Below are positions 23,879-55,041 of a stretch of 64,000 bases of DNA, piece after piece. Position numbers and translations under genes: made by a program. The stretch covers positions 101,331 to 165,330 of the forward strand of contig CAWBVP010000002.1 in NCBI GenBank assembly GCA_963792265.1, in the 5' to 3' direction. Within the stretch, counting starts at the first letter, position 1; the number at the start of each line of letters is the position of its first letter. The notes beneath the pieces were generated by a model. It was given only the letters and a program-made list of their open reading frames with translations, ran no database searches and was not told the origin of the DNA. This DNA is from an uncultured Gemmatimonadales bacterium. Its GTDB lineage: Bacteria; Gemmatimonadota; Gemmatimonadetes; Gemmatimonadales; GWC2-71-9.

Positions 23879-24385
23879 ATGGCCGGGGAATTCTACATCG
23901 GTGAATCGCTGGTCGGAGAAGGCAACGAAATTGCCCACATCGACCTGATCATCGGCTCGAAGAGTGGCCCAGCGGGCGCCGCGTTCGTGAATGCGCTCGC
24001 CACCAACACCGACGGCTTCAATCACCTGCTGGCCGTCGTCACGCCGAATCTGCCGGCCAAGCCCGACACCGTGCTCTTCAACAAGGTCACGATCAAGGGC
24101 GCCAAGCAGGCGGTGCAGATGTTCGGCCCGGCGCAGGCGGCAGTGGCCCGCGCGGTCGTGGACAGCGTGGCCAGCGGGGTGATCGACAAGGGCAAGGCCA
24201 ACGATCTCTGCATCCTGGTCGGGGTGTTCATCCACTGGCAGGCCGAGAACGACAAGAAGATCTACGACTACAACTATCAGGCCACCAAGGAGTCGATCCA
24301 GCGGGCGCTGCAGGGCAAGCCGACGGTGGATGAGGTGCTGCAGCGGTACAAGGCGCGCGCGGCATCCGTTTGCCAGCGGCGCTGA
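23879..24385 (+). CDS. fae: formaldehyde-activating enzyme
   Basis: [26 protein letters not shown]...VTPNLPAKP...FIHWQA matches Fae. A GGAGG RBS precedes the ATG. Confidence 0.95.
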
Positions 24386-24484
24386 GGGCTGATCGTACAG
24401 TCCCGCTATCCGAGATTTCCACGAGGGGCGGCCCGCTGACGGGGTGCGCCCCTCGTCTTTTAGACACCATCGGAGCATTCACCG

Positions 24485-25409
24485 ATGCGCAAGCTTCTGC
24501 TTCAACTCGACAGTTCGAGGCTGCCGAGCGTTTTCGATCAGGTCGTCGCCTACGATGCCGGCGCCGAGGTGGTGATGAGTTACGGAGGGGTAACCGAGGG
24601 TGACGTCCGCGATCTCATCCACGGTTGCATCTTCACCCGGGGTCCCAAGGACCTGCACAACACCGCGGTCTGGATCGGCGGTAGCAACATGTCGGCCGGC
24701 GAGCAGCTGCTGGCCATGGCGCAGGACGCGCTGTTCTCGCCGTTTTCGCGTTTCCATCATGCTGGACTCCAACGGCTCCAACACGACGGCGGTGGCGGCG
24801 GTGGTAAGATCGAGGAGACCCTGGGCGACATGCAGGGGAAAAAGGTCCTCATCCTGGCCGGCACCGGGCCGGTGGGTCAACGGGCAGCCGGCCTTCTCGC
24901 CAAGGACGGGGCCCGCGTCACCATCACATCGCGCAAGCCGGAGCAGGGCGAAAAGGCTCGCCAGTTCATCAGCGCCCGCTTCAACGTCCAGGTGGAAGCG
25001 GTCACCCTGAACGATCCTTCCAAACTGCCCGAACTGTGTCCAGGGTGTGGAGGTCCTGCTGAACTCCGGACCGGCCGGGGTGCAGATGGTGCCTAAGTCG
25101 GCCTGGACCGGAGTGAAGACGCTCAAGGTTGCGGTGGATCTGAATGCCGTTCCGCCGCTCGGGATCGAGGGGATCGACGTCAGCGACGCCGGCATGAAGA
25201 AGAATGGCGTGGTGGTGTTCGGCGCTTTTGGGGTCGGCAACTTCAAGACCAAGCTGCACAAGGCCTGCGTGGCAAAGCTGTTCACCCGCAACGATCTGGT
25301 CCTGGACGCCGAGGCTATTGCCGACATCGCGCGGGAGCTGGTGGCCACGAAGGAGCCGGCGGCGAGAAAAGAGCCGGAGGGCAGAAAAGAGCTGGCGAAA
25401 AAGAAGTAG
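24485..25409 (+). CDS. mtdB: NAD(P)-dependent methylene-tetrahydromethanopterin dehydrogenase (MtdA/MtdB family)
   Basis: LLLQLDSSRLPSVFD, FRVSIMLDSNGSNTTA (in the alternate frame), LAGTGPVG and GVGNFKTKLHKACVAKLF. There are at least 3 frameshifts. Confidence 0.85.
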
Positions 25410-25412
25410 GCG

Positions 25413-26460
25413 ATGACCCGCGTCGTGGGAATCGACCCGGGCACCGTCAGCATCGACGTGTGCGGGATCGCGGATGGCCAACTGTACCTCGACCAAAGCT
25501 GGCCCACGGAGGAGGCGCTGGCCCATCCGGACGGTCTCCTCGAGCTTTCTCACCCACGCGGGTCTCCCCGACCTCATCGCCGGCCCTTCCGGTTATGGCC
25601 TGCCCCTGCTCCGCGCAACCGATGCCACCGAGGCCGATCTCCGTCTGGCCTTTCTGGCCGCCCCGGACGAGCCCGGAGGGCATCGGTGGGCTTCGCGGCC
25701 TGGCGCGACGGCTCGGGGCCTCGGGCCTTCCGGTGGTCTACACGCCCGGGGTCATCCACCTCGATACGGTGCCCGACCATCGAAAGCTCAACCGGGTAGA
25801 TCTGGGAACGGCGGACAAGCTGTGCGCGGCCGTACTGGGGATTCACGACCAGGCAGAGCGGCTGAAGTGCAGTCCCGAAGCGGTCTCATTCATCCTGATC
25901 GAGCTTGGCGGAGCGTTTACCGCCGCAGTGGCGGTCGAGCGAGGTCAGATCGTTGACGGCATCGGGGGGACCAGCGGTCCGATTGGGTGGCGCGCTGCCG
26001 GAGCGCTGGATGGCGAGGTGGCGTTCCTCGCGGGCCGGATCTCCAAGGCAGCACTGTTTCAGGGCGGGGTGAGCTCAGTGATCCAGCGCGATCCGGCAAG
26101 AGCGTCGGTGGCCAGGGCAGCCTACCTCGAGGGCGCGGCCAAGGCCGTGCGCCAGCTTCGGTGCTCCGCGCCCTCGGCCGAGAGATCCTGCTCTCGGGAC
26201 GGAACGCTGAGGATCCGGAAATCCGGCAGCGGCTGACGATGGACTTGGCCGATATTGGGACGGTGCGGGTGCTCACCGGCTTTGCGGCTCATGCCAAGCA
26301 GGGGGCCCAGGGCGCCGCGCTGCTGGCCGATGGGCTGGCTGGAGGCCGCCACGCAGAGTTGGTGCGGCGATTGAGAATTCGGGAGGCGCGGGGCACGGTG
26401 CTCGACCATCTCGTCTTCATTTCCCCTGCGGCGGCGCGCGAGCGCCTGGGTCTCCCATGA
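25413..26460 (+). CDS. DUF1464-type ASKHA-fold protein of H4MPT-linked C1 clusters
   Basis: MTRVVGIDPGTVSIDVCG, GPSGYGLPL and IELGGAFTAAVAV. It is spread over 4 frames. Confidence 0.6.
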
Positions 26461-27623
26461 TGACTGAGAGAACCCGGGGCAACGTGCTGATGGCCGGACT
26501 GACGACCCGGGCGCTGGCAGTCTCCGCCGCCAAGGCGGGGTATCGGGTCACCGCCGTGGATGGCTTCGGCGATCGCGATCTACGCGCGGTGGCAGAGGTG
26601 ATCCAGGCACCTCGAACCGCAGGGACGGTTTCAGCCCCGTCGCCGCTGCCGTCGCCGCTGCGACAATCTCCGCGCCATGGGTGGCCTACACCTCGAATTT
26701 CGAGAACGATCCGGCCGCCGTTGCGGTCCTGAAGCAGGGCCGCCGCCTGTTGGGCAATCCACCTGAGGTGTTGGCGCGGGTACGCAATCCCATCGAGCTT
26801 GCGCGCTCACTCCGGGAGCGAGGCTTTGCCACGCCGGAAACCCGAGCTTCTCCCGCATCGCCCTCCTCCGGCCGGACCCAGTGGCTACTCAAGCCCCGGC
26901 GATCCGGTGGGGGCCACGGAGTCAGGATCTGGCGCGCCGGGCAGCCGGTCTCGCGAGGCAGATACCTGCAGGAACGGATTCACGGGCTGCCCGGGTCCAT
27001 TGTGTTTGCGGCCGACGGTCGCAGCGCGGTCACCCTCGGGCTCACCCGTCAGCTCGTGGGCGAGCCGCAACTGGGCGTGGCCGGCTTTCGCTACTGCGGT
27101 AGCCTGCTCGCTCCTCCGGCCCTACCACTCTTTCCCCGCCAGGCGCAGTTGTTGGAACGGGCGATAGCCCTGGCCGCCGCGGTAACCCGCGAGTTCGGGC
27201 TCGTAGGGCTCAACGGCATCGACTTCATCGCCAGGAACGGCGTCCCCTACCCGCTCGAGGTAAACCCCCGGTACTCCGCCTCTATGGAGCTGGTGGAGCG
27301 GAGTTCGGGCATTAACCTCTTCGAGGTTCACGCTCGGGCCTGCGACGGCGAGCTGCCCCTGCCCCCGGCGCCTGAGCGAACGGGTGCATGGGAAGGTCAT
27401 CGTCTTCGCCCGCCACGACGTCCGGCTGGGGAATACCCTCCGTTGGGCAGGCCGGTCATCGCTGGCCGACGTGCCCCATTCCGGCGATAAAATCCTGCGC
27501 GGTCATCCGATCTGCACCGTGTTCGCGGAAGCCGGGAGCGAACTGGCCTGTCTGCGGCTGCTGTGGCAGCGTGCAGCCGGCATCTATCGCTCGGTCGAGT
27601 CCCGAAAGCGGCGAGCGGCGTAA
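26457..27623 (+). CDS. ATP-grasp protein of the H4MPT-linked C1 cluster
   Basis: WLLKPRRSGGGHGV, LQERIHGLPGS and GLNGIDFI...PLEVNPRYSASMEL. There are frameshifts near 26640 and 27385. Confidence 0.65.
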
Positions 27624-28896
27624 TGGCCGGTCAGAGGGTGGAACACGTCACCTGTCTGGGCTGCGGATGCGGCTGTGACGACGTCACCGTCAGCGTAACC
27701 GACGGCCGGATCGTGGACGCGGCTCCGATCTGCCCTATCGGTCGCGCCTGGTTCGGTGACGGCACCGTGCCGACGGAGATAAAGCGCCAAGGCCAGCCGG
27801 TGAGCCTGGAAGAGGCATTGAATGAGGCCGCCACCGTACTGGTTGAGGCGCGGGGCCGGTGCCTCGTCTATCTGGGTCCTGATCTCAGTTCGGAGGCTCA
27901 GCGCGCCGCTCTTTCCCTGGCCGACGTTCTGGGCGCAGTCGTGGACTCTGCGACTTCGGCGACCGCGGCCACCGGGCTGATCGCCGCCCAGCGCCGGGGA
28001 CGCACCGGATCCACTCTGGGTGAGATTCGCAACCGGGGTGACGTCCTGCTCTTCTGGGGCGTGGATCCCTCGGATCGTTATCCCCGCTACCTGTCGCGCT
28101 ACGCGCTCGAGCCGGTGGGCACCCAGATACCGCAGGGCCGCAAGGGACGGTTTGTCATTTCGGTAAGCATTGGTGCGGAACGCGGGGTCAAGGAGGCTGA
28201 TCTCTCGCTCGACCTGGGCTCCGGATGATGAGATCCCTGCGCTCTCGCTCATGCGCGCAACAGTGGCGGGCAACCGGGTGGGTGAGCCTGCCGGGAACCT
28301 GGGTCAGGCTGTCGTCATTGCGAAGCGGCTGATGCAATCTCGCTACGCGGTGATCGTGCACGACGCCGAGCCCATCGGGCGGGCGGCGGGATCCGCTGAG
28401 GGTCGAGGGACTCATTGCGCTGACGGAGGCGCTCAACGAGCCCACCCGGGCAACGCTGAGCAGCCTTCGGGCGGGAGGGAATCGAACCGGGGCGGAGGCG
28501 GTGCTCACCTGGCAGACCGGATACCCCTTCGCAGTGGACTACTCTCGAGGGTATCCCCGCTACACACCGGCTGAGCGAGGCCTCGACCGTCTGGCCACGG
28601 GCGCCTTTCGCGCCGTGCTGCTGGCCGGTGCGCCGCCGCTCGACGGCTCCCCGCCGAACTCGTTCTCCGGCGCGAGCGTAATCACCATCGGCCCCCGAGC
28701 AAGCCAGGCGTCGTTCCCTACCCGGGTGGCCATCGACACCGGCGTGGCGGGAATCCACGAGTCAGGCATCGCCTACCGGATGGATGAGGTGGCGCTGCCA
28801 CTCCGGCCGCCGCTTCCGGGCCCGCGTTCAGCCGCGGAGACGCTCACCCGGCTCGGTGCGGCTGTACGAGCGCAACTGGAGCGGAAGTCCCTGTGA
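27623..28896 (+). CDS. fhcB: formyltransferase/hydrolase complex subunit B (FwdB-like)
   Basis: VTCLGCGCGCDD, with the C-terminus in ORF 28501-28896. The start overlaps the upstream stop as TAATG. There are 2 frameshifts. Confidence 0.85.
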
Positions 28897-30534
28897 GCAA
28901 GGCCACACTTCGGATTACCGGCGGCACGGTGTACGACCCGGCCAATGCGATCGACGGACAGGTCCGGGACATCTGTATTGAGGACGGCCGTATCGTCGAG
29001 ACCCTGCCGGATGGAGCGCCAGCACTCGACGCCCGGGGAATGGTGGTGATGCCAGGAGGAGTAGACATTCACTCCCACCTTGCCAGCTCGAGCTGCAATC
29101 AGGCCCGGCGGCTCTTGCCTGAGGAGCACGCAACTGATCCAGCGCCCGCTCCCGATCTGCTCGAGCAGTTCGACGGTGCCCGCTCGGGCACCGGAGGCAC
29201 CCTTCCCACGACCTTCACCACCGGCTATCGCTACGCCGGCCTGGGGTACACCACCGTGTTCGATGCGGCGGTGGCTCCGCTCATGGCCCGGCACAGCCAT
29301 GCGGAGCTGGAGGACACTCCTTGTGTGGACGGCGGAATTTTCGTGTTGCTGGGGAATGACGAATACCTTCTTCGCCAGGTGGCTGCCGGCGAGCGCAACC
29401 GCGCCCGCGACTACGCGGCTTGGCTGATCGGGTCCACCGGGGCGTATGCCATCAAGATCGTGAACCCCGGCGGCGTAGAGGCCTGGAAGTCGGGGCAGCG
29501 CAACCTCAACGGTCTCGACGACAAGCTGGCCGGCCGCGACGTTACCCCGCGAGCCATTCTGGAGACCCTGGCCGACGCCGGCAACGAACTGGGTCTTCCC
29601 CATCCGGTTCACATTCACTGCAACAACCTCGGCGTCCCCGGCAACTCGGCGGTCACCCTGGCCACCATGCAGGCCCTGGCCGGGCGCCGGGCTCACTTCA
29701 CCCATCTGCAATTTCACAGCTACGGTGGACCGCCCTGGAGCTCCGGCGCCCGGCCCCTCATCGAATACGTCAATGACCATCGGGAATTGAGCGTCGATGT
29801 CGGCCAGGTCATGTTCGGCCCCGCCACCACGGTCACGGCCGACGGTCCGGTCGAGTACATGCTGCACAAGAGCAGCGGCCGGAAGTGGGTCAACATTGAC
29901 ATCGAGCTGGAGACCGGCTGCGGAATCGTCCCCTTCATGTACAAGGACAAGGCGGCCGTTTCCGCTCTGCAATGGGCCATCGGCCTGGAGCTGTTTCTGC
30001 TGAGTCAGGATCCGTGGCGAGTGGTGCTGTCGACCGATCACCCGAACGGCGGATCATTCCTCTCCTACCCCGCGCTCATTCAGCTGTTGATGGACCGGAG
30101 CGTCCGGGACGAGCGGCTCAAGAGCGTCAATCCGAAGCTGCTGGCCGGGCTCAGCGCTGGCTGACGGACTCAGCCGAGAGTACACCCTCAATGAGATCGC
30201 CATCATTACTCGAGCCGGGCCTGCCCGCCTGCTCGGCCTCAAGCAGAAGGGACACCTCGGGGTGGGGGCGGACGCTGATGTCACCGTCTACCAGAAGGAC
30301 GCCGACATCGCCAGGATGTTCGCTTCGCCGAGATATGTGATCAAGGGTGGGTCGCTGCTGGTCGAGGAAGGCCAGCTGCGGAGAGCCCCACGAGGCCGCC
30401 GGCTCCGGCTCCAGCCCGGTTATGACGAGGCCATGCTTCCGGACTTGAAGCGTCACTTCGAGGCTTACTCGACGGTGTCGTTCGAGAACTATCCGGTCCA
30501 GGGGATTCCCGATGCGCCGATGCAGCTCAGCTGA
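28893..30534 (+). CDS. fhcA: formyltransferase/hydrolase complex subunit A (FwdA-like amidohydrolase)
   Basis: ITGGTVYDP...VMPGGVDIHSHL, PHPVHIHCNNLG and STDHPNGG. There is a frameshift near 30150. Confidence 0.9.
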
Positions 30535-30558: not shown

Positions 30559-31461
30559 ATGAAGATTCGGGGCGTCTTTATCGAGGACACCTTCGCTGAA
30601 GCGTTCACCATGCGGGTCGCGCGCGTCATCGTCACCGGTCGCAACGCCCGGTGGGTGAAGGAGGCTGCCCTAAAGCTGACCGGGTTTGCCACCTCGGTCA
30701 TTGGCTGCAAGGTGGAAGCCGGAATCGAGCGCGAGCTCCCCGCCACGGAGACGCCGGATGGCCGGCCGGGCATCAGCATGCTGCTGATGACGATGGGCAA
30801 GGACGATATGGGGAAGCGGTTGATCGAGCGCATCGGACAGACGGTGCTTACCTGCCCCACGACCGCCTGCTACGATGGATTGCCCGATGCCCCCGACCGG
30901 GTGGGAGTCGGCTCCGCACTCCGCTTCTTCGGGGACGGCTTTCAGAGCAGCAAGATCATTGCCGGGGAGCGCTTCTGGAGGATTCCGGTGATGGAGGGAG
31001 AGTTTCTGGTTCAGGAGAAGTTCGGCATGCTGAAGGGTGTGGGCGGCGGGAATTTCCTGATCCTTGCCACGACGGCGGATGCCGCACTGTCGGCGGCGGA
31101 AGCTGCGGCGGACACGATGGCCGCGCAGCCGAATGTCATTCTTCCGTTCCCCGGTGGCGTGGTCCGCAGCGGGAGCAAGGTCGGCTCCCGCCGGATCAAG
31201 TCCATGATCGCCTCGACCAACGACGCGTTTTGTCCCACCCTCCGGGCGGTAACGGAAACCGCTCTGCCTGACGGGGTGAACTCGGTGCTCGAAATCGTCA
31301 TCAACGGCACCGATGCGCCATCGATCGCCGCCGCCATGAAGTCAGGGATCGATGCCGCCTGCCGCGACGGCGTGGTGGCCATCAGCGCCGGGAATTACGG
31401 CGGCAAGCTCGGTCCCCATCATTTTCATCTGCGGAAGATCATGCAGGGCGCGGACGCATGA
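30559..31461 (+). CDS. fhcD: formylmethanofuran-tetrahydromethanopterin formyltransferase
   Basis: Intact 300 aa with IEDTFAEAF..RVIVTG..WV..AA..TGFATSVIGC. Confidence 0.95.
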   Translation: MKIRGVFIEDTFAEAFTMRVARVIVTGRNARWVKEAALKLTGFATSVIGCKVEAGIERELPATETPDGRPGISMLLMTMGKDDMGKRLIERIGQTVLTCPTTACYDGLPDAPDRVGVGSALRFFGDGFQSSKIIAGERFWRIPVMEGEFLVQEKFGMLKGVGGGNFLILATTADAALSAAEAAADTMAAQPNVILPFPGGVVRSGSKVGSRRIKSMIASTNDAFCPTLRAVTETALPDGVNSVLEIVINGTDAPSIAAAMKSGIDAACRDGVVAISAGNYGGKLGPHHFHLRKIMQGADA

Positions 31462-32225
31462 GCGGCGGGCTGCTGGCGCGGCTGAAGTCCGGGTTGACCG
31501 AGCGGGGGGATTTCGGAGAAGTGCTGTCCTCACCCTGGGCGACGCTCTCCGCCCGGGAAGTGGCGGAACGGCCAGTGTACCTGGAGCGCACCGGCCGGGT
31601 GCGGTTGGGCGACCTCTTCGAGCTCACCGGTGAACCCGGTGGCAAAATCCGCTTCGTCGGCGACCTTTCCAACGCCGATCGCGTGGCCGCCGGACTCACC
31701 GAGGGCGAGGTCACCATAGAAGGAAGCGTGGGCCAGGAAGCCGGCCTGGCGCTCGCGGGCGGATCCCTGGACATCGAGGGCGACGCCGGGCCTCGGGCCG
31801 GCGCGGCCCCGCTGGGCTACAAGCGAGGCATGACCGGCGGGGAGCTGATCGTACGGGGCTCTGCCGGTCCCGAGGCCGGAGCCGGCATGCGCCGGGGCCT
31901 GCTCGTCATTGCCAAGAGCGCGGGCGAGCGCACCGGCCTCGGGATGATCGCCGGGACGGTGGTCGTTCTCGGCACGGCCGGCCGGGAGACCGGACTGTGG
32001 TCCAAGCGCGGCTCGGTTGTCGCTCTGGGCCGGATCACGCCACCGGCTACATATGTATTGGCCTGCACCTATCAGCCCACCGTGCTTCGACTACTGCTCA
32101 GCCGCCTGAGCAGTCGATATGGGCTGGCGGTCCAGCGGAAGCACCTCAACGGTTTCTATCGGCGGTATAGTGGAGACATGGCCGAGCTGGGTAAGGGAGA
32201 GATCCTCGAATGGGTAGCCAAATGA
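31458..32225 (+). CDS. fhcC: formyltransferase/hydrolase complex subunit C (FwdC-like)
   Basis: Intact 255 aa with repeated G-rich beta-helix turns (GSVGQEAG..GGSLDIEGDAG..GGELIVRGSAG). Confidence 0.9.
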   Translation: MSGGLLARLKSGLTERGDFGEVLSSPWATLSAREVAERPVYLERTGRVRLGDLFELTGEPGGKIRFVGDLSNADRVAAGLTEGEVTIEGSVGQEAGLALAGGSLDIEGDAGPRAGAAPLGYKRGMTGGELIVRGSAGPEAGAGMRRGLLVIAKSAGERTGLGMIAGTVVVLGTAGRETGLWSKRGSVVALGRITPPATYVLACTYQPTVLRLLLSRLSSRYGLAVQRKHLNGFYRRYSGDMAELGKGEILEWVAK

Positions 32226-35727: not shown

Positions 35728-35737
35728 GAGAACCGCT

Positions 35738-41776: not shown

Positions 41777-41886
41777 GTGTTATGCCCCCGAGCGATCCCC
41801 CTAAGCGTTGAGTTTGTGGAAGTTAGGGTACCTCGCGGCCGCTAGAAATCGCCCCGGGATCACGCGTTTCGCCACCCATGCCGCCA

Positions 41887-43571: not shown

Positions 43572-43935
43572 ATGCCGGCAACCAAAGAGACGAACCTACA
43601 ACGAAACCGAAATCAACGAGCGGCTCAAGGAGCTGTCCGGCTGGTATTACGAGGACGGCTGGATCCGGCGGGTGTACAAGACCGATGGCTGGCCCACCAC
43701 GCTGATGCTGGTCAACGCGGTCGGCTTCCTGGCAGAAGCGGCCTACCATCATCCGGACCTGACCGTTACCTGGGGCCGGCTCACCGTGAAGCTCCAGAAT
43801 CATGCGGCCGGCGGAATCACCGACAAGGATTTCGAGCTGGCCCGGAAGATCGAGGAGGTCGTTCTTTGGCGTCCCCAGGGTGGGGCGCTCGAGGGCACGC
43901 CCAACAAGTGGGTGCGACCGGGGGATCCGAGATAG
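43572..43935 (+). CDS. pterin-4a-carbinolamine dehydratase
   Basis: EINERLKELSGW and EAAYHHPDLTVTWGRLTVKL. AAGGAGG RBS. There is a frameshift just after the ATG. Confidence 0.8.
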
Positions 43936-46893: not shown

Positions 46894-47564
46894 TCCTGCT
46901 AATCGACAACTACGACTCCTTCGTCTACAACCTCGCCCGTTATGTACGTGAGCTGGGCGAAACCCCGCTGGTTCGGCGGCACGATGCCATCGACGTGGAC
47001 GAGATCCTCGGCCTGAGCCCGTCGCACATCATCATCTCCCCTGGACCTTGCTCGCCCAACGAGGCCGGGATCTCTACCGAAGTCGTCCGCCGGATCGGGC
47101 CCCTGATACCGATCCTCGGCGTGTGTCTGGGCCACCAGTGCATTGGAGCCGCCTACGGAGGAGCTATCCTGCGCGCAGGCCACCCCATGCACGGAAAGAC
47201 TTCCCGGATCCATCACTCTGGCACCGGATTGTTCTCCGGGCTCCCCAGTCCTTTCATAGCCACCCGGTATCACTCCCTGGTCATCGCGCCCGGGTCGGTA
47301 CCGCCCAGCCTGGAGGTGACGGCGACGTCGGAAGACGGGGAGATCATGGCGGTCCGCCACGTGAAGCACCCAGTCTACGGGGTACAGTTCCACCCCGAGT
47401 CGGTATTGACCGAGCACGGTTACCGTATTCTCGACCACTTCCTCCATGGCGTGCCTGCCAGCCCCCGGCCACTTCCCGAAGGGGCCGATGGGGTCCTTCT
47501 ACCCCGTCGCTTCGACAGCAGCAGCCTGGCCACCAACCCCCCGCCGGTTGACCTGGTTCGGTGA
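46890..47564 (+). CDS. pabA: anthranilate/aminodeoxychorismate synthase glutamine amidotransferase component
   Basis: MILLIDNYDSFVYNL, GVCLGHQ and GVQFHPES. Confidence 0.9.
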   Translation: MILLIDNYDSFVYNLARYVRELGETPLVRRHDAIDVDEILGLSPSHIIISPGPCSPNEAGISTEVVRRIGPLIPILGVCLGHQCIGAAYGGAILRAGHPMHGKTSRIHHSGTGLFSGLPSPFIATRYHSLVIAPGSVPPSLEVTATSEDGEIMAVRHVKHPVYGVQFHPESVLTEHGYRILDHFLHGVPASPRPLPEGADGVLLPRRFDSSSLATNPPPVDLVR

Positions 47565-48106
47565 TCGTCGAGACCATCGTGACCACGAGGGACACCCAGG
47601 GGGCCATCAACTTTGCCCCCATGGGAGTGGAGTGGGGCGATGAGACCATTGTGCTGAAGCCGTTTCTGGAGACGACCACCTTTCGTAATCTGAGCGCCAC
47701 CCGCGCCGCGGTCGTCAACCTCACCGACGATGTCATGCTCTTCGCTCAGGGAGCGATCTCGAGTCCCCAGTTTCCCTCGTCCCCGGCCCGCGTGGTTAGT
47801 GGCGTTGTGCTCGAGGCCGCCTGCTCCTGGCGGGAGCTCGAGGTGCTGCAGATCGACGCCACTCCGCCGCGCTCTCGCATCGAGACCCGAGTGGTGCACC
47901 GGGGAGTGCGCCGCGAGTTCATCGGGTTCAATCGGGCTCGCCATGCGGTGCTCGAGGCCGCCATCCTGGCCACTCGTACCCACCTGATTCCGCCGGAGCA
48001 GATCCGGGAGGAGTTCGCCCGACTCCAGGTCATCGTGGACAAGACCGCCGGGCCTCGGGAGCAGGAGGCGATGGAGCTCCTGACCCAGTATGTCCGATCG
48101 CACTAG
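47561..48106 (+). CDS. DUF447 family protein of H4MPT clusters
   Basis: Intact 181 aa with IVTTRDTQGAINFAPMGV. Confidence 0.7.
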   Translation: MIVETIVTTRDTQGAINFAPMGVEWGDETIVLKPFLETTTFRNLSATRAAVVNLTDDVMLFAQGAISSPQFPSSPARVVSGVVLEAACSWRELEVLQIDATPPRSRIETRVVHRGVRREFIGFNRARHAVLEAAILATRTHLIPPEQIREEFARLQVIVDKTAGPREQEAMELLTQYVRSH

Positions 48107-49065
48107 CATTTTCGTCGAGGCTCCTGCCCGGCTGCATTTCGGGGTGCTCGATCTGCGCGGCCGGCTGGGGCGCTGTTTCGGCGGCCTCGGCGCGGCGATT
48201 CCCAACCCTTCATTACTGCTGGAAGCCCGGCCCTCGGCTCGGGTCTCGGCCGAAGGACCCGACGCCGAGCGGGCTACCGAATTCGCCAACCGGTTTCTTG
48301 CCTTCCATCGCCTGCAGCGGCGGCGTCCACCTGGTTCTCCACCGCACCATTCCCGATCACGCCGGACTCGGCTCCGGAACGCAGTTGGGTCTCTCGGTCG
48401 GCCGCGCCATCGCCGAGTTGCGCGGCCTCCCACCGGACCCGGTGGAGCTGGCCCGGGCTACCGGCCGGGGCCGGCGGTCGGCCATAGGAACCTGGGCCTT
48501 TGCGCTCGGCGGGTTCATCGTGGAGGGTGGCCGGCAACCGGGCTCGGATCGGCTGGCGCCGCTGCTGGCGCGCTTTGCCATTCCGGAGAGCTGGCGCTAC
48601 GTGGTTGCGGTGCCCGCCGGCGGCAGGGGCCTGAGTGGTGAGGCCGAGGCGCGAGCGTTCGAGCAGCTTCCCTCTCCGCCGGACCGGGAAGTCGAGCGGG
48701 TCTCGCACCTGGTGCTGATGCAGCTGCTCCCTGCGCTGGTGGAGGCCGACCTGCCCAGCTTCGGGGCGGCACTGTCGGAAATTCAACGGGTGACCGGCGC
48801 CTGGTTTGCGGCCCAGCAGGGCGGAGTCTTCGCTCCCGGACCGACGGCGAGGCTGGTAGCCGATCTGGCCGAGTGGGGCGCGGCAGGGGTGGGGCAGAGC
48901 TCCTGGGGTCCGGCCGCCTACGGGCTGGTCGAAAACGACGCCCAGGCCGAGGCGCTGGCGGACCGGGCTCGGCGGGCCCTGGGGTCTACCGGTCGGGTTT
49001 TCGCAGGGGGATTTGCGGCTCAGGGAGCCCGGGTTTGGACCGGTCCGGCAGGCTCCCCGAACTGA
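48090..49065 (+). CDS. mptG: beta-ribofuranosylaminobenzene 5'-phosphate synthase (GHMP kinase fold)
   Basis: APARLHFGVLDL and IPDHAGLGSGTQLGLSV. There is a frameshift near 48300. Confidence 0.8.
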
Positions 49066-49094
49066 TTGACAGTTCATTTTTCAGGGTGTATACT
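49066..49094 (+). promoter_or_regulatory. consensus sigma70 promoter TTGACA-N17-TATACT
   Basis: The -35 is at 49066-49071, starting one base after the mptG stop, and the -10 is at 49089-49094. It lies 580 nt upstream of the xoxF ATG. Confidence 0.55.
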
Positions 49095-49674: not shown

Positions 49675-51487
49675 ATGAACCGTTTTGCGCAGAAGGTGGT
49701 GTCTGGCGGGCTCGCTGCGGGTCTCTCGGTAGCCGTAGCGATGTCAGCCAGCGCCCAACAGGCGCGGTCGGGGGCTTGGACCCTGAACGCGCCCGAGGGC
49801 GAATGGCACATGACCGGTCGTGATTACAGCCTGCAGCGGTTCAGCCCGCTCAAGCAGATCACGACGTCGAACGTGGCCGAGCTCCGGCCCGTCTGGTCGT
49901 TCTCGACCGGGACGCTTCGGGGGCACGAGGGCAATCCGCTCGTGATCGGCAACGTGATGTACGTGCACACGTCCTTCCCGAACATCGTGTACGCGCTCGA
50001 TCTCTCCAAGCCCGGCGCGCCGCAGATCTGGAAGCACGTGCCCAACCAGTCGCCCGACGCGATTCCAATCGCGTGCTGCGACCTGGTGAACCGCGGGACC
50101 GCCTATCACCCGAGCGGCAAGATCTTCATCCAGCTGCTCCAGGGTGAGCTGCTCGCGCTCGATGCCAAGACCGGCAAAGAGCTGTGGAAGGTCAAGAACG
50201 CCGACTACAAGCAGGGCTCGACGATGACCAACGCCCCGATCGTGATCAAGGACCTCGTCATCGCCGGTATCTCGGGCGGTGAGTTCGGCGTCCGCGGCCG
50301 CGTGACGGCGTACAATGTCAACGACGGCAAAGAAGTCTGGCGCGGCTATAGCACCGGGCCGGACAGCGAAGTCCTGATCGAGGGCGACGCCAACGCCAAC
50401 TATCCGTCCCACAAGGGCAAGGACCTCGGCGTCTCGACCTGGCAGGGTGATGAGTGGAAGCGGGGCGGCGGCACCACCTGGGGCTGGTACTCCTACGACC
50501 CCGAGCTGAACCTCTTCTACTACAGCACCGGCAACCCGGGCACCTGGAACCCCGACCAGCGGCCGGGCGACAACAAGTGGTCCATGACCATCTTCGCCCG
50601 CAACCCGGACAACGGGCAGGTGAAGTGGGCCTATCAGATGACGCCGCACGATGAGTGGGACTACGATGGCGTCAACGAGAACGTCCTGTTCGAGAGCGGT
50701 GGCAAGAAGCTGCTGGCGCACTTCGACCGTAACGGCTTCGGCTACACCCTCGACCGCACCACCGGTAAGGTCCTGGTCGCGCAGCCCTATGGTCCGGTCA
50801 ACTGGGCCAAGCGGGTCGATCTGACCACCGGCGTGCCGGAGAAGGATCCGAAGTACGGCACCACCGCGAAGAAGAACACCGAGGGCATCTGCCCCGCGGC
50901 GATCGGCTTCAAGGATCAGCAGCCGTCGGCCTACTCGCCGATGACCGGCCTCTTCTACGTCCCGGCGAACCACATCTGCATGGACTATGAAGGCGTCGAA
51001 GTGAAGTACACCGCCGGTCAGCCGTACGTCGGCGCGATCGTGCGGATGTTCCCGGGCCCGGGCGGTCACCGTGGCAATTTCATCGCCTGGGATCCGATGA
51101 AGGGCAAGGCGGTGTGGTCGAACAAGGAGAACCTCGCGGCCTACGGCGGGGCGCTCACCACGGCGGGTGGCCTGGTCTTCTACGGCACCATGGAAGGCTG
51201 GCTCAAGGCGCTTGACCAGAAGACCGGCAAGAGCCTGTGGCAGTACAAGACCCCGTCGGGCATCATCGGCAACCCGATGACCTACAACGGTCCCGATGGC
51301 CAGCAGTACGTGGCCGTGCTCTCCGGCATCGGTGGCTGGGCCGGCATCGGCGTAGCCGCCGGCATCGGCGCCGAAGATCCGACCGCCGGTCTGGGCGCGC
51401 TGGGCGCGTTCGGCGACGCGGGTAACTTCAGCAACCAGGGTGGCGTGCTGACGGTCTTCGCGCTCAAGAATCACGGCAATGAAGTAA
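49675..51487 (+). CDS. xoxF: lanthanide-type PQQ methanol dehydrogenase
   Basis: Signal peptide, vicinal cysteines in PIACCDLVNRG, and HDEWDYDGVNE, where the Asp two residues after the catalytic Asp marks XoxF rather than MxaF. The in-frame stop is missing, so the end is approximate. Confidence 0.95.
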
Positions 51488-51646: not shown

Positions 51647-52544
51647 GTGACTGTTCGATGTCCTGCATCGCTTCCGGCTCGCGTCTCGCTGGTCCTTGGG
51701 CTAGCCTGCGCCTGCCGCTCAGCTCTGCCGGCTCAGGCGCTGCGGCCCGCGTCCAGCAGCCTGGGGTCCTCCGGGTCTGCGCCGACACGGACAACATGCC
51801 GCTTCTCCAACCAGAAGGGCGAAGGGTTACGAAAAGAAGATTGCCGAGCTGATCGCCAAGGACTGGAAGTCGAAGATCGAGTACGCCTGGTGGCCGGTCC
51901 GGCGGGGCTATTACCGGGCGCTGAACGGCACCTATTGCGACGTGATCATCGAATCCCCCGCCGGGCTGGACAGGCCGGCGTCACCAAGCCGTATTACCGC
52001 TCCGGCTATGCCTTCGTCAGCCGCAAGGGAGAGCGGCTTCGAGGACATCAAGTCGCTGGCCGATCCCCGGCTCAAGAAGCTCAAGATCGGAGTCAATATG
52101 TTCGACTCCGACGACGGCGAGAACTCGCCGCCGGCAATGGCCCTCAGCCGCTACGGCGTGGTCGGCAACCTCCGGGGCTACAACACCTCGTATGACCGAG
52201 AATATCCGGCCCGAAGACATCATCAACGGGGTGGCCAAGAAGGACATCGACGTGGCGATCGTCTGGGGGCCGATGGCCGGCTACTTCGTGAAGAAGGCCT
52301 CGGTGCCGCTGGTGCTCACCCCGCATCGCGGCCGAGCAGGGATTCGGCCACCGGCTTTCCCATGCAGTACAACATCGGCATGGCGGTCCGGCGCCAGGAT
52401 AAGGCGCTGCGCGACAGCCTGCAGACTCTGCTCGACCGGAGAGCGCCCGACATCCAGGCCATTCTGAAAGCAGCTATGGAGTCCCGGTTATTCCCCTCGA
52501 AGACCGAGGCGCCAGCGGATTCAGGACGCGCGGCTAAACCCTGA
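51647..52544 (+). CDS. xoxJ: XoxJ/MxaJ-like periplasmic binding protein
   Basis: Signal peptide, LRVCADTDNMP, TKPYYRSGYAF, VAIVWGPMAGYF and QYNIGMAVR. It is spread over at least 4 frames. Confidence 0.75.
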
Positions 52545-52648: not shown

Positions 52649-53035
52649 GTGTTGGGCTTGTGCGCGCTGGCTTCCCGGGCCTCGGCCCAGGAGCTGAGAG
52701 ATCAGTATCACCAGGCTCCCCGCGACACGGTCTCCCAGGAGGTCTACGATGGCTGGAAGCAGTTCAACCTGAACTGCGCCCGCTGTCATGGCGAGGACGT
52801 ACAAGGCACGACTATCGCTCCGCACCTCATCCTCTCGCTCAAGCCCGACGGCCCGATCAACACCAAGGAGTTGTTCATTCAGACGGTGTGCGCCGGACGC
52901 CCGGCCAAGGGGATGCCATCCTGGTGCGCCCTGGGAATGGAGCTGCCCACCATCGAGAAGATCTACGCCTACGTGAAAGGCCGGAGCGATGCGAAGATTG
53001 CGCCGGGCCGGCCCGCGGTGAAGTCGGGGGCATAG
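52649..53035 (+). CDS. xoxG: XoxG-type c-type cytochrome
   Basis: CARCHG heme motif downstream of xoxJ. The signal peptide probably starts at the out-of-frame ATG 52596. Confidence 0.8.
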   Translation: MLGLCALASRASAQELRDQYHQAPRDTVSQEVYDGWKQFNLNCARCHGEDVQGTTIAPHLILSLKPDGPINTKELFIQTVCAGRPAKGMPSWCALGMELPTIEKIYAYVKGRSDAKIAPGRPAVKSGA

Positions 53036-53038
53036 AGG

Positions 53039-53933
53039 ATGAGCTCTCCGCTGGTGCGGCTTCGGATGCTTGGCCTGCTGGGGCTGGCCGCACTCGGCTG
53101 GGTCGCTACCGGCGGGCGCACGTCCGTCGAAGGAGCCGCTGGCCTGTGTACTCCCTCGAGAGGCGGCCACGGCGGCAGAGGTGGTAGATTCGCCGGCCGT
53201 ACGAATGAGCTTGCCTCAGCTCAAGGCAAAGCTGGCCTCGGGCACTGAAGACAAGCCGCCGGATCTCAGCAAGGTGGACCTGAGCGGGCTGGACCTCAGC
53301 GGCGTGGACTTCAAGCGGGCCAACCTGACCGGCGCGCGATTGGCGGGCACCAAACTGGCCGGCGCAAACCTGTTTACCGCCGATCTCACCGACGCGGTAC
53401 TTACCGACGCCGATCTCACCAAGGCCAACCTGGATGGCAGCGTCCTCCGGCGTGCCAACTTTCAGCGGGCCAATCTGGAGGGTGCCAGTCTCTTCGCGAC
53501 GATCATCGAGGCGGCCGACCTGAGCAACGCCAATCTGGCCGGCACCCGGATCATCGGTTATCTCCGGGGAGCCAAGCTCAACGGTGCCAGTCTCCGCCAT
53601 GCCAACGCTGGAGCCGACCCAGGGAATCAATCGATGGGGGTCATGCGGGCCACGTTCGTCGGGGCCGACCTCAGCGGAGCCGATCTCTCCGACGCCAATC
53701 TGTTCAAGGCCGACCTGTCCCACGCCAACCTCACCAACGCCAAGCTGGCGCGAACCAACCTGATGAACGCGGACCTGATCCAGACCGACCTGACCCGGGC
53801 CGATCTTACCGATGCCAAGCTGGCCAAGGCAAACATCGACGAAGCCGACTTCACCTCCGCGGTCGGCGTGGCCAGCATTCAGGGGCTGGATCAGGCCCGC
53901 AACCGGGAGAAAGCGACCTTCGATGCGAAGTGA
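53039..53933 (+). CDS. periplasmic pentapeptide-repeat protein
   Basis: Signal peptide MSSPLVRLRMLGLLGLAALG (in a frame shifted near 53160), then about 40 A(D/N)LxG pentapeptide units. Confidence 0.85.
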
Positions 53934-55041
53934 TGCCCCCGCCAATAGAATCGCGCTGATCGCGCTCTCGTGTGGTCTGACAGCCTTGGGCTGCGGCAAG
54001 GAACGCCCCTCGCTGGGTGGACGGGCCGACACCGTGACGGCTTCAAACGGCCAGGCGGCTCCGCCTTCCGGCGAGCTGGCTTACGTGACCAACGAAGATT
54101 CTCAGAATCTGAGTGTCATCGATACCCGAACCGACAGCCTCATCGCCACCATCCCGGTCGGCACCCGGCCCCGCGGGGTCAAGGTCAGTCCTGACGGGCG
54201 GCTGGTCTACGTCGCCCTCAGCGGATCACCGAAGTGCCCGCCCAGTATGCCTGACGCGGAGTGCGAGAAGCTCAAAGCGGACAAGACCAAAGACGGCATC
54301 GCCGAGGTGGACGTGGCCGCGCGGAAAGTACGCCGGATATTGCCCGGCGGCTCCGATCCGGAACAGTTCGATATCTCCCACGATGGATCTCGGCTGTACA
54401 TCTCCAACGAGGACGCCGGGTCGGCGTCGCTGGTCGACCTGAAGAGCGGCACCATCGACACCACGGTTCCGGTCGGAGCCGAACCGGAGGGAGTGCGGAT
54501 CAGCCCCGATGGCAAGCTGGTGTACGTGACCGCCGAGAGCGACACATCGATCAGAGTGCTCGACGCGGCTAGCGGGGCGGTAAAGGCCCGCATCAAGGTC
54601 GATCGCCGGCCCCGGGATGTGGCCTTCACACCCGACGGAAAACGAGCGTACTCGACTGCCGAAGTCGGAGGCACCGTCTCGGTGATCGATGTGGCCAGCA
54701 ACAAGGTGCTCGCCACTATCCGTCTGCCCAAGGACGCGAAGCCAATGGGGGTGAGGGTGTCCCCCGATGGGAAGCTGGTCTACATAGCCACCGGGCGCGG
54801 CGGCACCGTGGTCGTGATCGACCCGGCCACGAACAAGATCGTCGGCTCGGTCAAGGTAGGTCAGCGGCCCTGGGGAATAGCGCTTACTTCCGACGGGACC
54901 AAGCTGTATACCGCGAACGGGCCTTCGAACGATGTCAGCGTGGTGGATACCAAGACCTTGCACGTCATCAAGACGATTCCAGTAGGCAAGATCCCATGGG
55001 GGGTGGCCATCGGCCCCAGCCCGGGGAGCGCCGGCCCCTAG
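53923..55041 (+). CDS. YVTN-family beta-propeller lipoprotein (PQQ-dependent catabolism-associated type)
   Basis: Lipobox LTALGC, and repeated blades of the form VxVSPDGKxxYVxN...VSVID. Confidence 0.85.
   Translation: MRSDAPANRIALIALSCGLTALGCGKERPSLGGRADTVTASNGQAAPPSGELAYVTNEDSQNLSVIDTRTDSLIATIPVGTRPRGVKVSPDGRLVYVALSGSPKCPPSMPDAECEKLKADKTKDGIAEVDVAARKVRRILPGGSDPEQFDISHDGSRLYISNEDAGSASLVDLKSGTIDTTVPVGAEPEGVRISPDGKLVYVTAESDTSIRVLDAASGAVKARIKVDRRPRDVAFTPDGKRAYSTAEVGGTVSVIDVASNKVLATIRLPKDAKPMGVRVSPDGKLVYIATGRGGTVVVIDPATNKIVGSVKVGQRPWGIALTSDGTKLYTANGPSNDVSVVDTKTLHVIKTIPVGKIPWGVAIGPSPGSAGP

Follow-up and report, generated by a model that had tools for sequence, protein, structure and literature searches.

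Genes for XoxF methanol oxidation, for the H4MPT route of formaldehyde oxidation and for cofactor biosynthesis lie side by side in 31 kb of the Gemmatimonadales DNA studied here, which raises the question of whether they form a portable, self-contained methylotrophy module or a resident part of the chromosome. The segment (positions 23879-55041 of the window, meaning the whole 64-kb stretch analysed) comprises fae, mtdB, fhcBADC, mch, xoxFJG and about 18 cofactor genes. It is very probably a conserved, vertically inherited chromosomal cluster of the Gemmatimonadales, predicted by homology to take methanol to formate.

Gene content and cofactor assignments

Gene identities and order were determined directly, with support from profile models (Table 1). 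From the ATG of fae to the stop codon of the beta-propeller gene, content, order and strands were as an earlier note on this DNA had described them, and curated models bore out its central claim that one compact cluster unites methanol oxidation by XoxF with the complete H4MPT route and the biosynthesis of cofactors. Scores lay below curated equivalog cutoffs for FhcB, the DHPS-like protein, MfnE, MfnB, the Orf17-like protein and the MptN/MyfB-type ligase.

Table 1. Features of the 23879-55041 cluster, with strand and supporting evidence. L001 and L087 are relative loci whose orthologues were scored where stated.
Feature	Position	Strand	Evidence
fae, formaldehyde-activating enzyme	23879..24385	+	TIGR03126 239.6 bits (cutoff 118); Pfam Fae
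mtdB, methylene-H4MPT dehydrogenase, frame changes	24485..25409	+	Pfam Mpt_N 91.6 bits
DUF1464 protein, three frame changes	25413..26460	+	PF07318 156 bits, partial match
ATP-grasp ligase, candidate MyfA/OrfY-type, two frame changes	26484..27620	+	Pfam ATP-grasp_3 75.7 bits
fhcB, two frame changes	27623..28896	+	TIGR03129 261 bits on L087 orthologue, below cutoff 327.8
fhcA, one frame change near 30148	28893..30534	+	TIGR03121 675 bits on intact L087 orthologue
fhcD, formyltransferase	30559..31461	+	TIGR03119 413.6 bits (cutoff 292.6)
fhcC	31458..32225	+	TIGR03122 149.9 bits (cutoff 130.65)
mch, methenyl-H4MPT cyclohydrolase, start uncertain	32340..33203	+	TIGR03120 371.7 bits (cutoff 228.8); Pfam MCH E = 1e-116
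Tandem EthD-domain lipoprotein	33218..34009	+	TIGR02118 matched in two stretches; lipobox ...FAAGC in translation
RimK-family glutamate ligase (earlier 'mptN')	34012..34881	+	TIGR00768 216 bits (cutoff 143)
CitG-like protein, frame change near 35251-35282	34803..35727	+	Weak partial triphosphoribosyl-dephospho-CoA synthase matches, L001 orthologue
PTPS/QueD-family pterin enzyme	35576..36241	+	Pfam PTPS 70.7 bits; TIGR00039, TIGR03367 below cutoffs
HisA/HisF-family protein, Orf17-like	36246..37007	-	Pfam His_biosynth 98 bits; TIGR00734 101 bits, below cutoff
MfnF/Orf9 homologue (earlier 'hydantoinase-like'), one frame change near 37359-37393	37034..38084	+	TIGR03123 307.9 bits (cutoff 244.1), L001 orthologue
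MfnE/Orf21-like kinase, frame changes	38078..38650	+	NF040622 MfnE 86 bits, below cutoff, L001 orthologue
HAMP-GGDEF-EAL signalling protein, two frame changes (near 39548, 40129-40159)	38620..41460	-	Pfam EAL 250 bits, GGDEF 129 bits, HAMP
mfnB, 4-HFC-P synthase, one frame change near 42027-42044	41801..42631	-	PF04476 148.8 bits; NF002575 149 bits, below cutoff
SDR oxidoreductase	42719..43468	+	adh_short_C2 197 bits
Pterin-4a-carbinolamine dehydratase (PCD), start uncertain	43585..43935	+	PF01329 89 bits
Dihydropteroate-synthase-like (DHPS-like) protein of H4MPT biosynthesis	43997..45355	+	DUF6513 + Pterin_bind + DUF4346; TIGR00284 173.8 bits, below cutoff
pabB, aminodeoxychorismate synthase component I	45352..46893	+	TIGR00553 370 bits (cutoff 328)
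pabA, glutamine amidotransferase	46890..47564	+	TIGR00566 227.9 bits (cutoff 121)
DUF447 protein	47561..48106	+	PF04289 + PF20766
mptG, beta-RFA-P synthase, one frame change near 48295-48314	48090..49065	+	TIGR00144 165.6 bits (cutoff 113.5), L001 orthologue; GHMP kinase domains
Predicted near-consensus sigma-70 promoter (TTGACA, 17 nt, TATACT)	49066..49094	+	11/12 matches vs 0.1 expected by chance
Conserved upstream ORF, about 99 codons	49289..49588	+	N-terminus MGLxPFA; E-R-G-P-P at 49556-49570
xoxF, lanthanide-type PQQ methanol dehydrogenase	49675..51485	+	TIGR03075 688.6 bits (cutoff 480)
xoxJ, periplasmic binding protein, about 7 frame changes	51650..52544	+	TIGR03871 267.6 bits (cutoff 212), L001 orthologue
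xoxG, c-type cytochrome	52649..53035	+	Cytochrome_CBB3; weak TIGR03874 + PedF matches; CxxCH in translation
Pentapeptide-repeat protein	53181..53933	+	PF00805 154.7 bits
PQQ-catabolism-associated YVTN beta-propeller	53923..55041	+	TIGR03866 277.1 bits, just below cutoff 287.3; TIGR02276 repeats

By homology, the cofactor genes provide for methylofuran as well as for H4MPT, the former through homologues of mfnB/E/F, orf17 and myfA/B, and some names were revised. The gene previously called mptN does encode a RimK-type ligase, but the MptN_Meth model scored 256 bits against a cutoff of 350, and the sequence is more likely that of a MyfB/Orf5-type methylofuran polyglutamate ligase; MyfB is 33% identical to MptN. 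The genes designated hydantoinase-like and kinase were likewise present, but are better named as MfnF (226 bits with the MfnF model) and MfnE homologues. The ATP-grasp ligase is a candidate MyfA, which the literature describes as an ATP-grasp enzyme of the cluster, and Orf17 is a PF00977 member essential for methylofuran. Many SDR models matched the SDR oxidoreductase, among them a pteridine-reductase model, below its cutoff. The PCD is 93% identical to its L001 orthologue, the EthD lipoprotein is kept at the same position in relatives (55-68% identity), and the HAMP-GGDEF-EAL gene is kept in nearly all Gemmatimonadales loci that cover its position. No equivalents of MfnA, MfnC and MfnD, no pabC and no recognised dihydromethanopterin reductase came to light within the window.

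The ligand set observed in XoxF agrees with the lanthanide type proposed before. Its best solved relatives are the XoxF structures 6OC5, 4MAE and 6DAM, and it keeps the Cys-Cys pair as well as Glu, Asn, Asp and the extra lanthanide-coordinating Asp of the DYD motif, which aligns with D318/D320 of 6OC5. As also reported earlier, no MxaI, PQQ-synthesis or EF-hand family was found among the ORFs scanned across the whole window. The description of the cluster as self-contained had to be dropped: the window holds no genes for PQQ synthesis, lanthanide uptake, formate dehydrogenase or assimilation, and the cluster covers the path from methanol to formate only.

Inheritance and frame changes

Taxonomy and conservation were read directly from related loci. 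With the DHPS-like protein as query, the best 80 of 341 GTDB matches (L001-L080) were all from Gemmatimonadales (Gemmatimonadota) MAGs, at 74-86% identity, which upholds a host outside the Proteobacteria; at no more than 86% identity to any of them, the source is a species apart from the GTDB representatives. In the 80 species that these loci represent, the order from mptN to the beta-propeller gene was retained as far as each contig reaches, apart from a few missing gene matches and one local swap of the kinase and GGDEF genes (L080), and soil metagenome contigs retained the order from fae to GGDEF. The contiguity of the whole 31 kb in relatives was pieced together from two overlapping locus sets, L087 matching the gene order of the window between the left-flank gene and GGDEF, and L001 doing so between mptN and the beta-propeller gene. 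On the right, L161-L164 share the flanking genes for CFA synthase, two small paralogues, DoxX and prolyl oligopeptidase. GC content was 65.6% inside the cluster and 65.1% outside, and tetranucleotide usage correlated at r = 0.990 between cluster and flanks, the left and right flanks being less alike (r = 0.978); by composition, cluster and flanks could not be distinguished.

Because gene order is kept, the flanks are conserved and composition equals that of the flanks, the locus is regarded as an inherited gene cluster and not a mobile island. The earlier note's word 'island', taken in the sense of an acquired module, is not supported. In a rival reading, the 31 kb were recently acquired by horizontal transfer as a portable methylotrophy module, for instance from Proteobacteria. 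Tight packing and functional coherence of the genes would suit such an origin, as would the lateral transfer of H4MPT genes known from the literature in some lineages (e.g. Burkholderia) and the left-flank gene, which is conserved in close relatives (L087) but not detectably so beside fae in more distant contigs. Recent acquisition is nevertheless highly improbable when set against the shared composition, the flanks conserved on both sides in close relatives, the gene order kept in the best 80 of 341 loci with identity declining smoothly, and the lack of any proteobacterial sequence among those 80 matches. Pfam scans of the window detected neither integrase nor transposase families. The sole ARAGORN tRNA call (18797-18869), which lies inside a helicase ORF some 5 kb away from the left border, is probably false.

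Relative to intact orthologues, about 25 frame changes fall within the cluster. They affect mtdB (whose L087 orthologue maps onto two frames), the DUF1464 gene (frames 3, 2 and 1), the ATP-grasp gene, fhcB (frames 2, 3 and 1), fhcA (where the Pfam Amidohydro_3 match straddles two ORFs of the window), the citG-like gene, mfnF, mfnE, the GGDEF-EAL gene, mfnB, mptG, xoxJ and the 3' end of xoxF, where an indel near 51470-51480 removed the stop and the ORF continues to 51852; fae is a single frame relative to L087. The flanks are also frame-split, in the genes for a DnaE-type polymerase, IspH/LytB, PFK, CFA synthase and GSDH and in the left-flank Omp85-like gene (about 5). Since flanking housekeeping genes carry them too, the frame changes are read as putative assembly indels, not decay. 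That the frameshifts are real, the genes pseudogenes and the lineage in the course of losing methylotrophy might be argued from their number, roughly 7 in xoxJ alone, from the lost xoxF stop and from junctions that are not clearly tied to homopolymers and lie mostly outside long ones. Decay is highly improbable, however, given a similar density of splits in the flanks, segments between frame changes that keep orthologue-level identity (50-96%) with stops not accumulating, and the intact state of fae, fhcD, fhcC, the DHPS-like gene, pabB and pabA.

Promoter and small open reading frame before xoxF

The 610-nt gap before xoxF contains a predicted promoter and a small conserved ORF, both absent from the earlier note. 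The 52 aligned Gemmatimonadales loci all have the promoter, a few divergent ones in a varied or partly truncated form. The reading frame of the ORF is preserved in 39 of 41 loci, with 25 different lengths represented; stops across the loci number 2 in frame 0 and 36 in each of the other frames, and codons vary synonymously inside an invariant E-R-(G/S/A)-P-P motif near the C-terminus. The copy in the window has an in-frame TGA at 49463. Its 110 database homologues are unnamed.

The predicted product looks like a putative RGPP-type ribosome-arrest peptide. In common with the RAPP-like arrest peptides (SecM with RAGP, ApdA/ApdP with RAPP, RGPP homologues and CruR), it is specified by a small ORF co-directional with the downstream gene and is hypervariable outside the invariant R-(G/S/A)-P-P close to its C-terminus. 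Of the arrest motifs known, RGPP is the strongest, and ORFs of this kind lie ahead of genes with many different functions, metal homeostasis included. In contrast to those peptides, no N-terminal signal peptide or transmembrane segment is evident, and the downstream gene, a PQQ methanol dehydrogenase, lies outside the downstream classes listed for them. No general SD-sequestering hairpin was found adjoining the predicted arrest site.

Proposed pathway and closest known clusters

By homology, periplasmic XoxF, with PQQ and a lanthanide, would oxidise methanol to formaldehyde and pass electrons to the cytochrome XoxG, while XoxJ would act as an accessory protein. In the cytoplasm, Fae would condense formaldehyde with (dephospho-)H4MPT, MtdB would oxidise the methylene-H4MPT, Mch would hydrolyse methenyl-H4MPT, and the FhcABCD complex would transfer the formyl group to methylofuran and release formate. 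H4MPT would be supplied by pabAB (p-aminobenzoate), MptG, the DHPS-like protein and PTPS, possibly with SDR/PCD and DUF447, and methylofuran by MfnB, MfnE, MfnF, the Orf17-like HisA/F protein and the MyfA-like and MyfB-like ATP-grasp ligases. Alternatively, the cluster might serve only to gain energy or to detoxify ('methylovory'), or other alcohols or formaldehyde might be the main substrates of XoxF, with no growth on methanol. ORF scans found no serine, RuMP or CBB assimilation genes and no formate dehydrogenase in the window, the XoxF/ExaF family contains enzymes with other substrates, and literature searches found no cultured Gemmatimonadales methylotroph. Such a restricted role is possible though rather unlikely: close coupling to a full H4MPT route points to high formaldehyde flux, and Butterfield et al. 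2016 (PeerJ 4:e2687) report that Gemmatimonadetes MAGs contain genes of the serine pathway and for PQQ, and that XoxF ranked with the most abundant proteins in soil.

The arrangement itself was published in 2016 by Butterfield et al.; what is new is the small conserved ORF upstream of xoxF. In their Fig. S3, a contig of the same phylum has the same gene neighbourhood, in which THMPT biosynthesis genes directly precede xoxF and fae, mtdB, fhc and mch are nearby; its XoxF has the lanthanide Asp, and cluster proteins were detected by proteomics in soil. The present DNA comes from a different species and is of lower sequence quality, and includes methylofuran genes, GGDEF-EAL, the EthD lipoprotein and the pre-xoxF promoter and small ORF, which that paper, in the text consulted, does not mention.

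The earlier statement that model proteobacteria have these functions at several separate loci does not hold for M. extorquens, which likewise clusters them: fhcABCD and the H4MPT and methylofuran biosynthesis genes form one 'archaeal-like' cluster, and xoxF1 (META1_1740) and myfB (META1p1764) are only 24 locus tags apart. In Methylorubrum extorquens AM1/PA1 a single region of the chromosome contains the same set of functions (fhcABCD, mch, mtdB, fae and mptG, with xoxF1GJ nearby), its methylofuran counterparts being Orf22 = MfnB, Orf21 = MfnE, Orf9 = MfnF, Orf17 (HisA/F family), Orf5 = MyfB and OrfY = MyfA. The present cluster differs in belonging to another phylum, in its fhc order (B-A-D-C), in xoxF directly abutting mptG, in a window without the mxaFI system, and in extra conserved members: pabAB, SDR and PCD, the tandem-EthD lipoprotein, HAMP-GGDEF-EAL, the pentapeptide protein and the beta-propeller.

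Gene content and predicted functions

Gene content was assessed by Pfam and NCBIfam scans of the window's own ORFs and, for broken genes, of the intact orthologous ORFs of relatives. These scans bore out the genes, order, and orientation that the earlier note had listed for the cluster. It opens with fae, mtdB, DUF1464, ATP-grasp, fhcB, fhcA, fhcD, fhcC, and mch, and continues with a tandem-EthD lipoprotein, a RimK-type ligase, a CitG-like protein, PTPS, a HisA/F-like protein (minus strand), a TIGR03123/MfnF-like protein, an MfnE-like kinase, a HAMP-GGDEF-EAL protein (minus strand), and MfnB (minus strand). SDR, PCD, a DHPS-like protein, pabB, pabA, DUF447, and mptG follow, and the series closes with xoxF, xoxJ, xoxG, a pentapeptide protein, and a YVTN beta-propeller. 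Coordinates of individual features are collected in the table.

Features of the window discussed in the text (window positions)
Feature	Position	Strand	Remarks
Y-family polymerase (IMS/ImuB-like)	2204-3391		left flank
DnaE-type polymerase III alpha	6496-9974		left flank; split over three ORFs
GSDH-family soluble glucose/sorbosone dehydrogenase	10366-11361	+	split over two frames; 12 kb left of cluster
IspH/LytB	13954-15162		split, profile positions 3-129 and 172-266
Helicase ORF	17849-19240
tRNA-Gln(CTG), ARAGORN call	18797-18869	-	about 5 kb left of fae; inside helicase ORF
Omp85/PD40 gene	20057-23142		left flank; about 5 frame changes
Cluster, fae to beta-propeller	23879-55041		about 31 kb
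Tandem-EthD lipoprotein	33218-34009	+	lipobox FAAGC
HAMP-GGDEF-EAL protein	38620-41460	-	2 frame changes
pabB and pabA	45352-47564
mptG-xoxF gap	49066-49674		610 nt
Promoter hexamer TTGACA	49066-49071		followed by 17-nt spacer
Promoter hexamer TATACT	49089-49094
Upstream ORF	49289-49588	+	about 99 codons; co-directional with xoxF; ends 86 nt before xoxF ATG
Upstream ORF, start ATG	49289
Upstream ORF, in-frame TGA	49463
Upstream ORF, E-R-(G/S/A)-P-P motif	49556-49570
Upstream ORF, stop TGA	49586
CFA synthase	55071-56451		split, profile positions 2-125 and 127-272
Two adjacent paralogous proteins	56441-57484	+	about 170 aa
PFK	60174-61254		split, profile positions 1-95 and 96-277

Matches above the equivalog cutoffs were obtained for Fae, FhcA, FhcC, FhcD, Mch, PabB, the MptG family, TIGR03123, TIGR03075 (XoxF family), and TIGR03871 (XoxJ-like). 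Those below the cutoffs were FhcB (261 bits vs a cutoff of 327.8), the NCBIfam MfnB model, TIGR03866, and, from the cofactor set, the DHPS-like protein, MfnE, and the MptN model. All members of the formaldehyde-oxidation module (Fae, MtdB, Mch, and FhcA/B/C/D) were found by profile scans, with MtdB supported by Pfam Mpt_N. The Pfam scans contained no PQQ-synthesis, EF-hand, or MxaI family (very small ORFs were covered non-exhaustively for MxaI), in agreement with the statement that mxaFI, lanmodulin, and PQQ synthesis genes are missing from the window. Pfam scans of the flanks returned no assimilation or formate dehydrogenase families, and Rfam at the gathering threshold gave zero matches over the whole window.

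XoxF scored 688.6 bits with TIGR03075 (cutoff 480). When the window protein was ranked against PDB entries, the closest solved enzymes were all lanthanide enzymes, namely M. extorquens XoxF1 (6OC5, 755 bits), that of M. fumariolicum (4MAE, 732), and that of M. buryatense (6DAM, 724), and MxaF chains scored about 597-646. The extra Asp, located two residues past the catalytic Asp (D-x-D) at a position where MxaF has Ala, and corresponding to D320, the role of which has been shown in the literature, is present (HDEWDYDGVNE aligned to HDEWDFDGINE of strain AM1, D318/D320). The other metal ligands, Glu and Asn, and the vicinal Cys-Cys are kept as well, with GISGGEFGV, GNPGTWNP, and ACCDLVNRG aligning to the AM1 equivalents. 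Directly downstream of xoxF lie xoxJ (TIGR03871) and then a c-type cytochrome gene. By family, ligands, and neighbours alike, the protein is predicted to be a XoxF-type lanthanide-dependent PQQ methanol dehydrogenase. XoxF, XoxG (cytochrome c), and XoxJ would carry out periplasmic methanol oxidation, and Fae, MtdB, Mch, and FhcABCD would convert the formaldehyde to formate, all enzymatic steps being assigned by homology. A second PQQ-linked enzyme, the GSDH-family dehydrogenase of the left flank, fits with PQQ synthesis elsewhere in the genome.

The cofactor genes appear to supply two cofactors, H4MPT and methylofuran, and not one. Hemmann et al. 2021 identified Orf22 as MfnB, Orf21 as MfnE, Orf9 as MfnF, Orf17 as a HisA/F family protein, Orf5 as MyfB (RimK-like, 33% identical to archaeal MptN), and OrfY as MyfA (ATP-grasp), which together synthesise methylofuran, the carrier of formyl groups for Fhc. 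Homologues of all six are present in the window. Within the cofactor set, MptG (TIGR00144), Orf9 (TIGR03123), and the RimK ligase (TIGR00768) passed in NCBIfam, and MfnB, His_biosynth, and ATP-grasp_3 passed in Pfam. MptG, the DHPS-like protein, PTPS, and pabAB fit a predicted H4MPT synthesis route, in which pabAB is presumably the source of p-aminobenzoate for MptG; no pabC (aminodeoxychorismate lyase) was recognised in the window. SDR, PCD, DUF447, DUF1464, the CitG-like protein, and the EthD lipoprotein carry no assigned pathway step. Annotators of such clusters should note the methylofuran genes (mfnB/E/F, orf17, and myfA/B) besides those for H4MPT.

Several features of this region were recorded in addition. 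The pabB and pabA genes lie inside the cluster in all relatives, and the SDR and PCD pair occupies the place at which one might look for a dihydromethanopterin reductase. The HAMP-GGDEF-EAL protein, which has a GAF domain in relatives, lies amid the cofactor genes in almost every Gemmatimonadales locus that spans the site (55-91% identity), a placement that may point to a link between c-di-GMP and C1 metabolism. The tandem-EthD lipoprotein, between mch and the RimK-type ligase, is kept in Gemmatimonadales-type contigs and has no match in three distant metagenome loci (L141, L146, and L154), where the ligase follows mch directly.

Reading frames, composition, and inheritance

Frame changes were mapped by aligning the intact ORFs of two collinear relatives, a Gemmatimonadales MAG locus (L001) and a soil metagenome contig (L087), to the window with tblastn. 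The reading frame is interrupted in many cluster genes: single frame changes were located in fhcA, the citG-like gene, mfnF, mfnB, mptG, and the 3' end of xoxF (where the stop is lost and the ORF extends to 51852), at least one each in mtdB and mfnE, two each in the ATP-grasp gene, fhcB, and the GGDEF-EAL gene, three in DUF1464, and about seven in xoxJ. The formaldehyde module consequently lacks a full set of intact reading frames, with mtdB, fhcB, and fhcA split. Their density is uneven, ranging from these approximately seven in xoxJ to none in pabB and the DHPS-like gene. Such interruptions could be taken for pseudogenisation; since the flanking housekeeping genes are split too (see table) and identity to the L001 and L087 orthologues is normal between junctions, they are read as assembly indels. 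Homopolymers showed no clear association with the junctions, few of which had runs of 4-5 bases. The contig needs polishing before gene-level inference.

The host was assessed by a GTDB scan with one genome per species, which returned 341 relatives of the DHPS-like protein. The best 80 of the 341 were all Gemmatimonadales, Gemmatimonadaceae, or Gemmatimonadota MAGs (74-86% identity, declining gradually across the loci), and the view that the host is not proteobacterial is judged correct. The cluster has the same order in 80/80 of these best loci, judged only as far as each contig extends: mptN-like, citG-like, PTPS, hisA/F (minus strand), mfnF, mfnE, GGDEF-EAL (minus strand), mfnB (minus strand), SDR, PCD, DHPS-like, pabB, pabA, DUF447, mptG, xoxF, xoxJ, xoxG, pentapeptide, and beta-propeller. 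The exceptions are a few sub-threshold gene matches and one locus (L080) with the kinase and GGDEF genes swapped. The left half was covered by a metagenome scan with FhcD (583 relatives), in which the longer soil contigs retain, in this order, fae, mtdB, DUF1464, (ATP-grasp), fhcB, fhcA, fhcD, fhcC, mch, EthD, mptN-like, citG-like, PTPS, hisA/F, mfnF, and GGDEF-EAL; none of the relative contigs compared covers the full 31 kb alone. More distant metagenome contigs (L105, L115, L116, L131, and L150) have the fhc order B-A-C-D, not B-A-D-C; FhcD relatives at 64-80% identity therefore show no fewer than two cluster architectures.

The cluster had been described as an island, which would imply acquisition, and this did not hold when its composition was checked against the flanks. 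GC content is uniformly high along the window (0.62-0.68 per 2-kb segment), that of the cluster is 0.656 vs 0.651 for the flanks, and tetranucleotide usage correlates more closely between cluster and flanks (r = 0.990) than between the left and right flanks (r = 0.978). Pfam scans of the window contained no integrase or transposase families. The gene left of fae is also present in L087, and on the right the window shares CFA synthase, two small paralogues, DoxX, and prolyl oligopeptidase with four close-relative loci (L161-L164), the right-hand neighbourhood being identical apart from the position of CFA synthase. Because order and flanks are conserved, composition matches that of the flanks, and no integrase or transposase family turned up in the Pfam scans, the cluster is, on sequence grounds, a conserved and vertically inherited unit and not an acquired island. 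These results confirm that the combination of XoxF, H4MPT, and cofactor genes is ancestral to, and stably positioned in, a large clade of soil Gemmatimonadales that extends over at least 80 GTDB species and hundreds of metagenome contigs.

The flanks gave further observations. The tRNA-Gln(CTG) called by ARAGORN is probably a false positive, as it lies within a helicase ORF and has no Rfam tRNA match. The CFA synthase gene follows the beta-propeller in the window, and in L161-L164 it is flanked by xoxG and the pentapeptide gene (14129-15433 in L161 and L163). The two paralogues to its right share the motif CGPPEW.GT.HTH.AL, fall in no Pfam family, and are conserved beside DoxX and prolyl oligopeptidase in L161-L164. 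In the left flank, a small lipoprotein-like ORF, a quinone oxidoreductase, and a Tag glycosylase/hydrolase lie between the Y-family polymerase and the DnaE-type polymerase, the latter probably an error-prone DnaE2.

Promoter and conserved ORF upstream of xoxF

The gap between mptG and xoxF, which the earlier note passed over, contains a promoter, a conserved transcribed block, and a small ORF. A near-consensus sigma-70 promoter directly 3' of the mptG stop matches 11/12 consensus positions (0.1 such sites expected by chance), and was kept in the 52 Gemmatimonadales loci aligned, with variation in a few divergent ones; transcription would presumably start near 49101. About 190 nt past the promoter, an SD-like GAGGRR precedes the ATG of an ORF whose product begins MGL(F/L)PFA, has a hypervariable middle rich in Arg, Ser, and Pro, and carries an invariant E-R-(G/S/A)-P-P motif near its C-terminus. 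The stop lies 0-44 codons past the motif in loci where the frame closes before xoxF. The motif ER[GSA]PP was found in 44/52 loci, and ATG and motif share a frame in 39 of the 41 loci that have both, at 25 different spacings that are all multiples of three. Stops within the ORF region number 2 in frame 0, vs 36 in each of the remaining frames. In the codons of E, R, P, and P, positions 1 and 2 are invariant and the third positions use 2, 4, 4, and 4 codons. The shared frame, the scarcity of frame-0 stops, and the synonymous third-position variation are evidence for translation of the ORF and for selection acting on its amino-acid sequence. In public gene calls, 110 homologues are all labelled 'hypothetical', one of them with a single Pfam domain. 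In the four assemblies L161-L164 the ORF is annotated as a gene of 93 aa lying between those for MptG and the PQQ dehydrogenase. The window copy has an in-frame TGA, which is uninformative because of the error rate of this sequence.

At the N-terminus of the ORF product, only an uncharged stretch of 12-13 residues (MGLFPFASTVGTM) is conserved; no clear N-terminal export signal was found in the ORF, and no alternative upstream starts are conserved. The consensus structure predicted for the 5'UTR by RNAalifold was weak (-5.4 kcal/mol) and contained a single hairpin of 7 bp, with no more than modest covariation. This hairpin may cover the ORF's own SD and start codon, and part of the N-terminal conservation may reflect it. 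SecM-like sequestration of the xoxF SD by the arrest-proximal sequence did not emerge as a general feature, with a median rank of 0.21 vs control windows; strong pairing occurs only in loci using GGG CCU CC codons.

A study of ribosome-arrest motifs reports RGPP as the strongest and describes its variants RAPP and RSPP as permissive. Such motifs are under-represented in proteomes and enriched towards the C-terminal ends of small ORFs that precede genes of diverse function, metal homeostasis among them. Its text and the supplements consulted make no mention of PQQ, methanol, or Gemmatimonadota, and the top 30 gene classes that it lists downstream of RGPP ORFs do not include PQQ dehydrogenases. 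The upstream ORF is a candidate RGPP-type arrest peptide controlling xoxF at the level of translation in Gemmatimonadales, a proposal to which we give an even chance. The arrangement would comprise the near-consensus promoter, the upstream ORF, a structured spacer of 85-215 nt, and xoxF, and stalling on the ORF would tune xoxF translation or transcript continuation.

Comparison with known systems

The statement that these functions are split over several loci in model proteobacteria was overstated, as M. extorquens has one 'archaeal-like' cluster holding fhcABCD with the H4MPT and methylofuran genes. Its xoxF1 (META1_1740) lies 24 locus tags from myfB (META1p1764); proteobacterial gene order was taken from Hemmann et al. 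2021 and locus tags. For Gemmatimonadetes, Butterfield et al. (PeerJ 4:e2687) place fae, mtdB, fhc, mch, and xoxF in a single neighbourhood (Fig. S3) with the same arrangement as the window cluster, and PQQ synthesis and serine-pathway genes elsewhere in the genomes. They assign the XoxF to a new clade adjoining proteobacterial XoxF, and report that the proteins of this neighbourhood rank with the most abundant of the soil proteome. The cluster arrangement was thus already published in 2016, and the window provides a further copy of it at the species level. By itself the cluster contributes little, and the promoter and RGPP-ending ORF before xoxF are the only part of the locus that looks new.

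If the upstream ORF does stall ribosomes, this would be the first concrete hypothesis for the regulation of one of the most abundant soil proteins in an uncultured lineage, and a handle on xoxF regulation outside Proteobacteria. With RAPP-like arrest peptides it shares small size, co-directional upstream placement, and a C-terminal R-(A/G/S)-P-P, and the proposal, if true, would extend that group to a C1/lanthanide enzyme, a new regulatory context.
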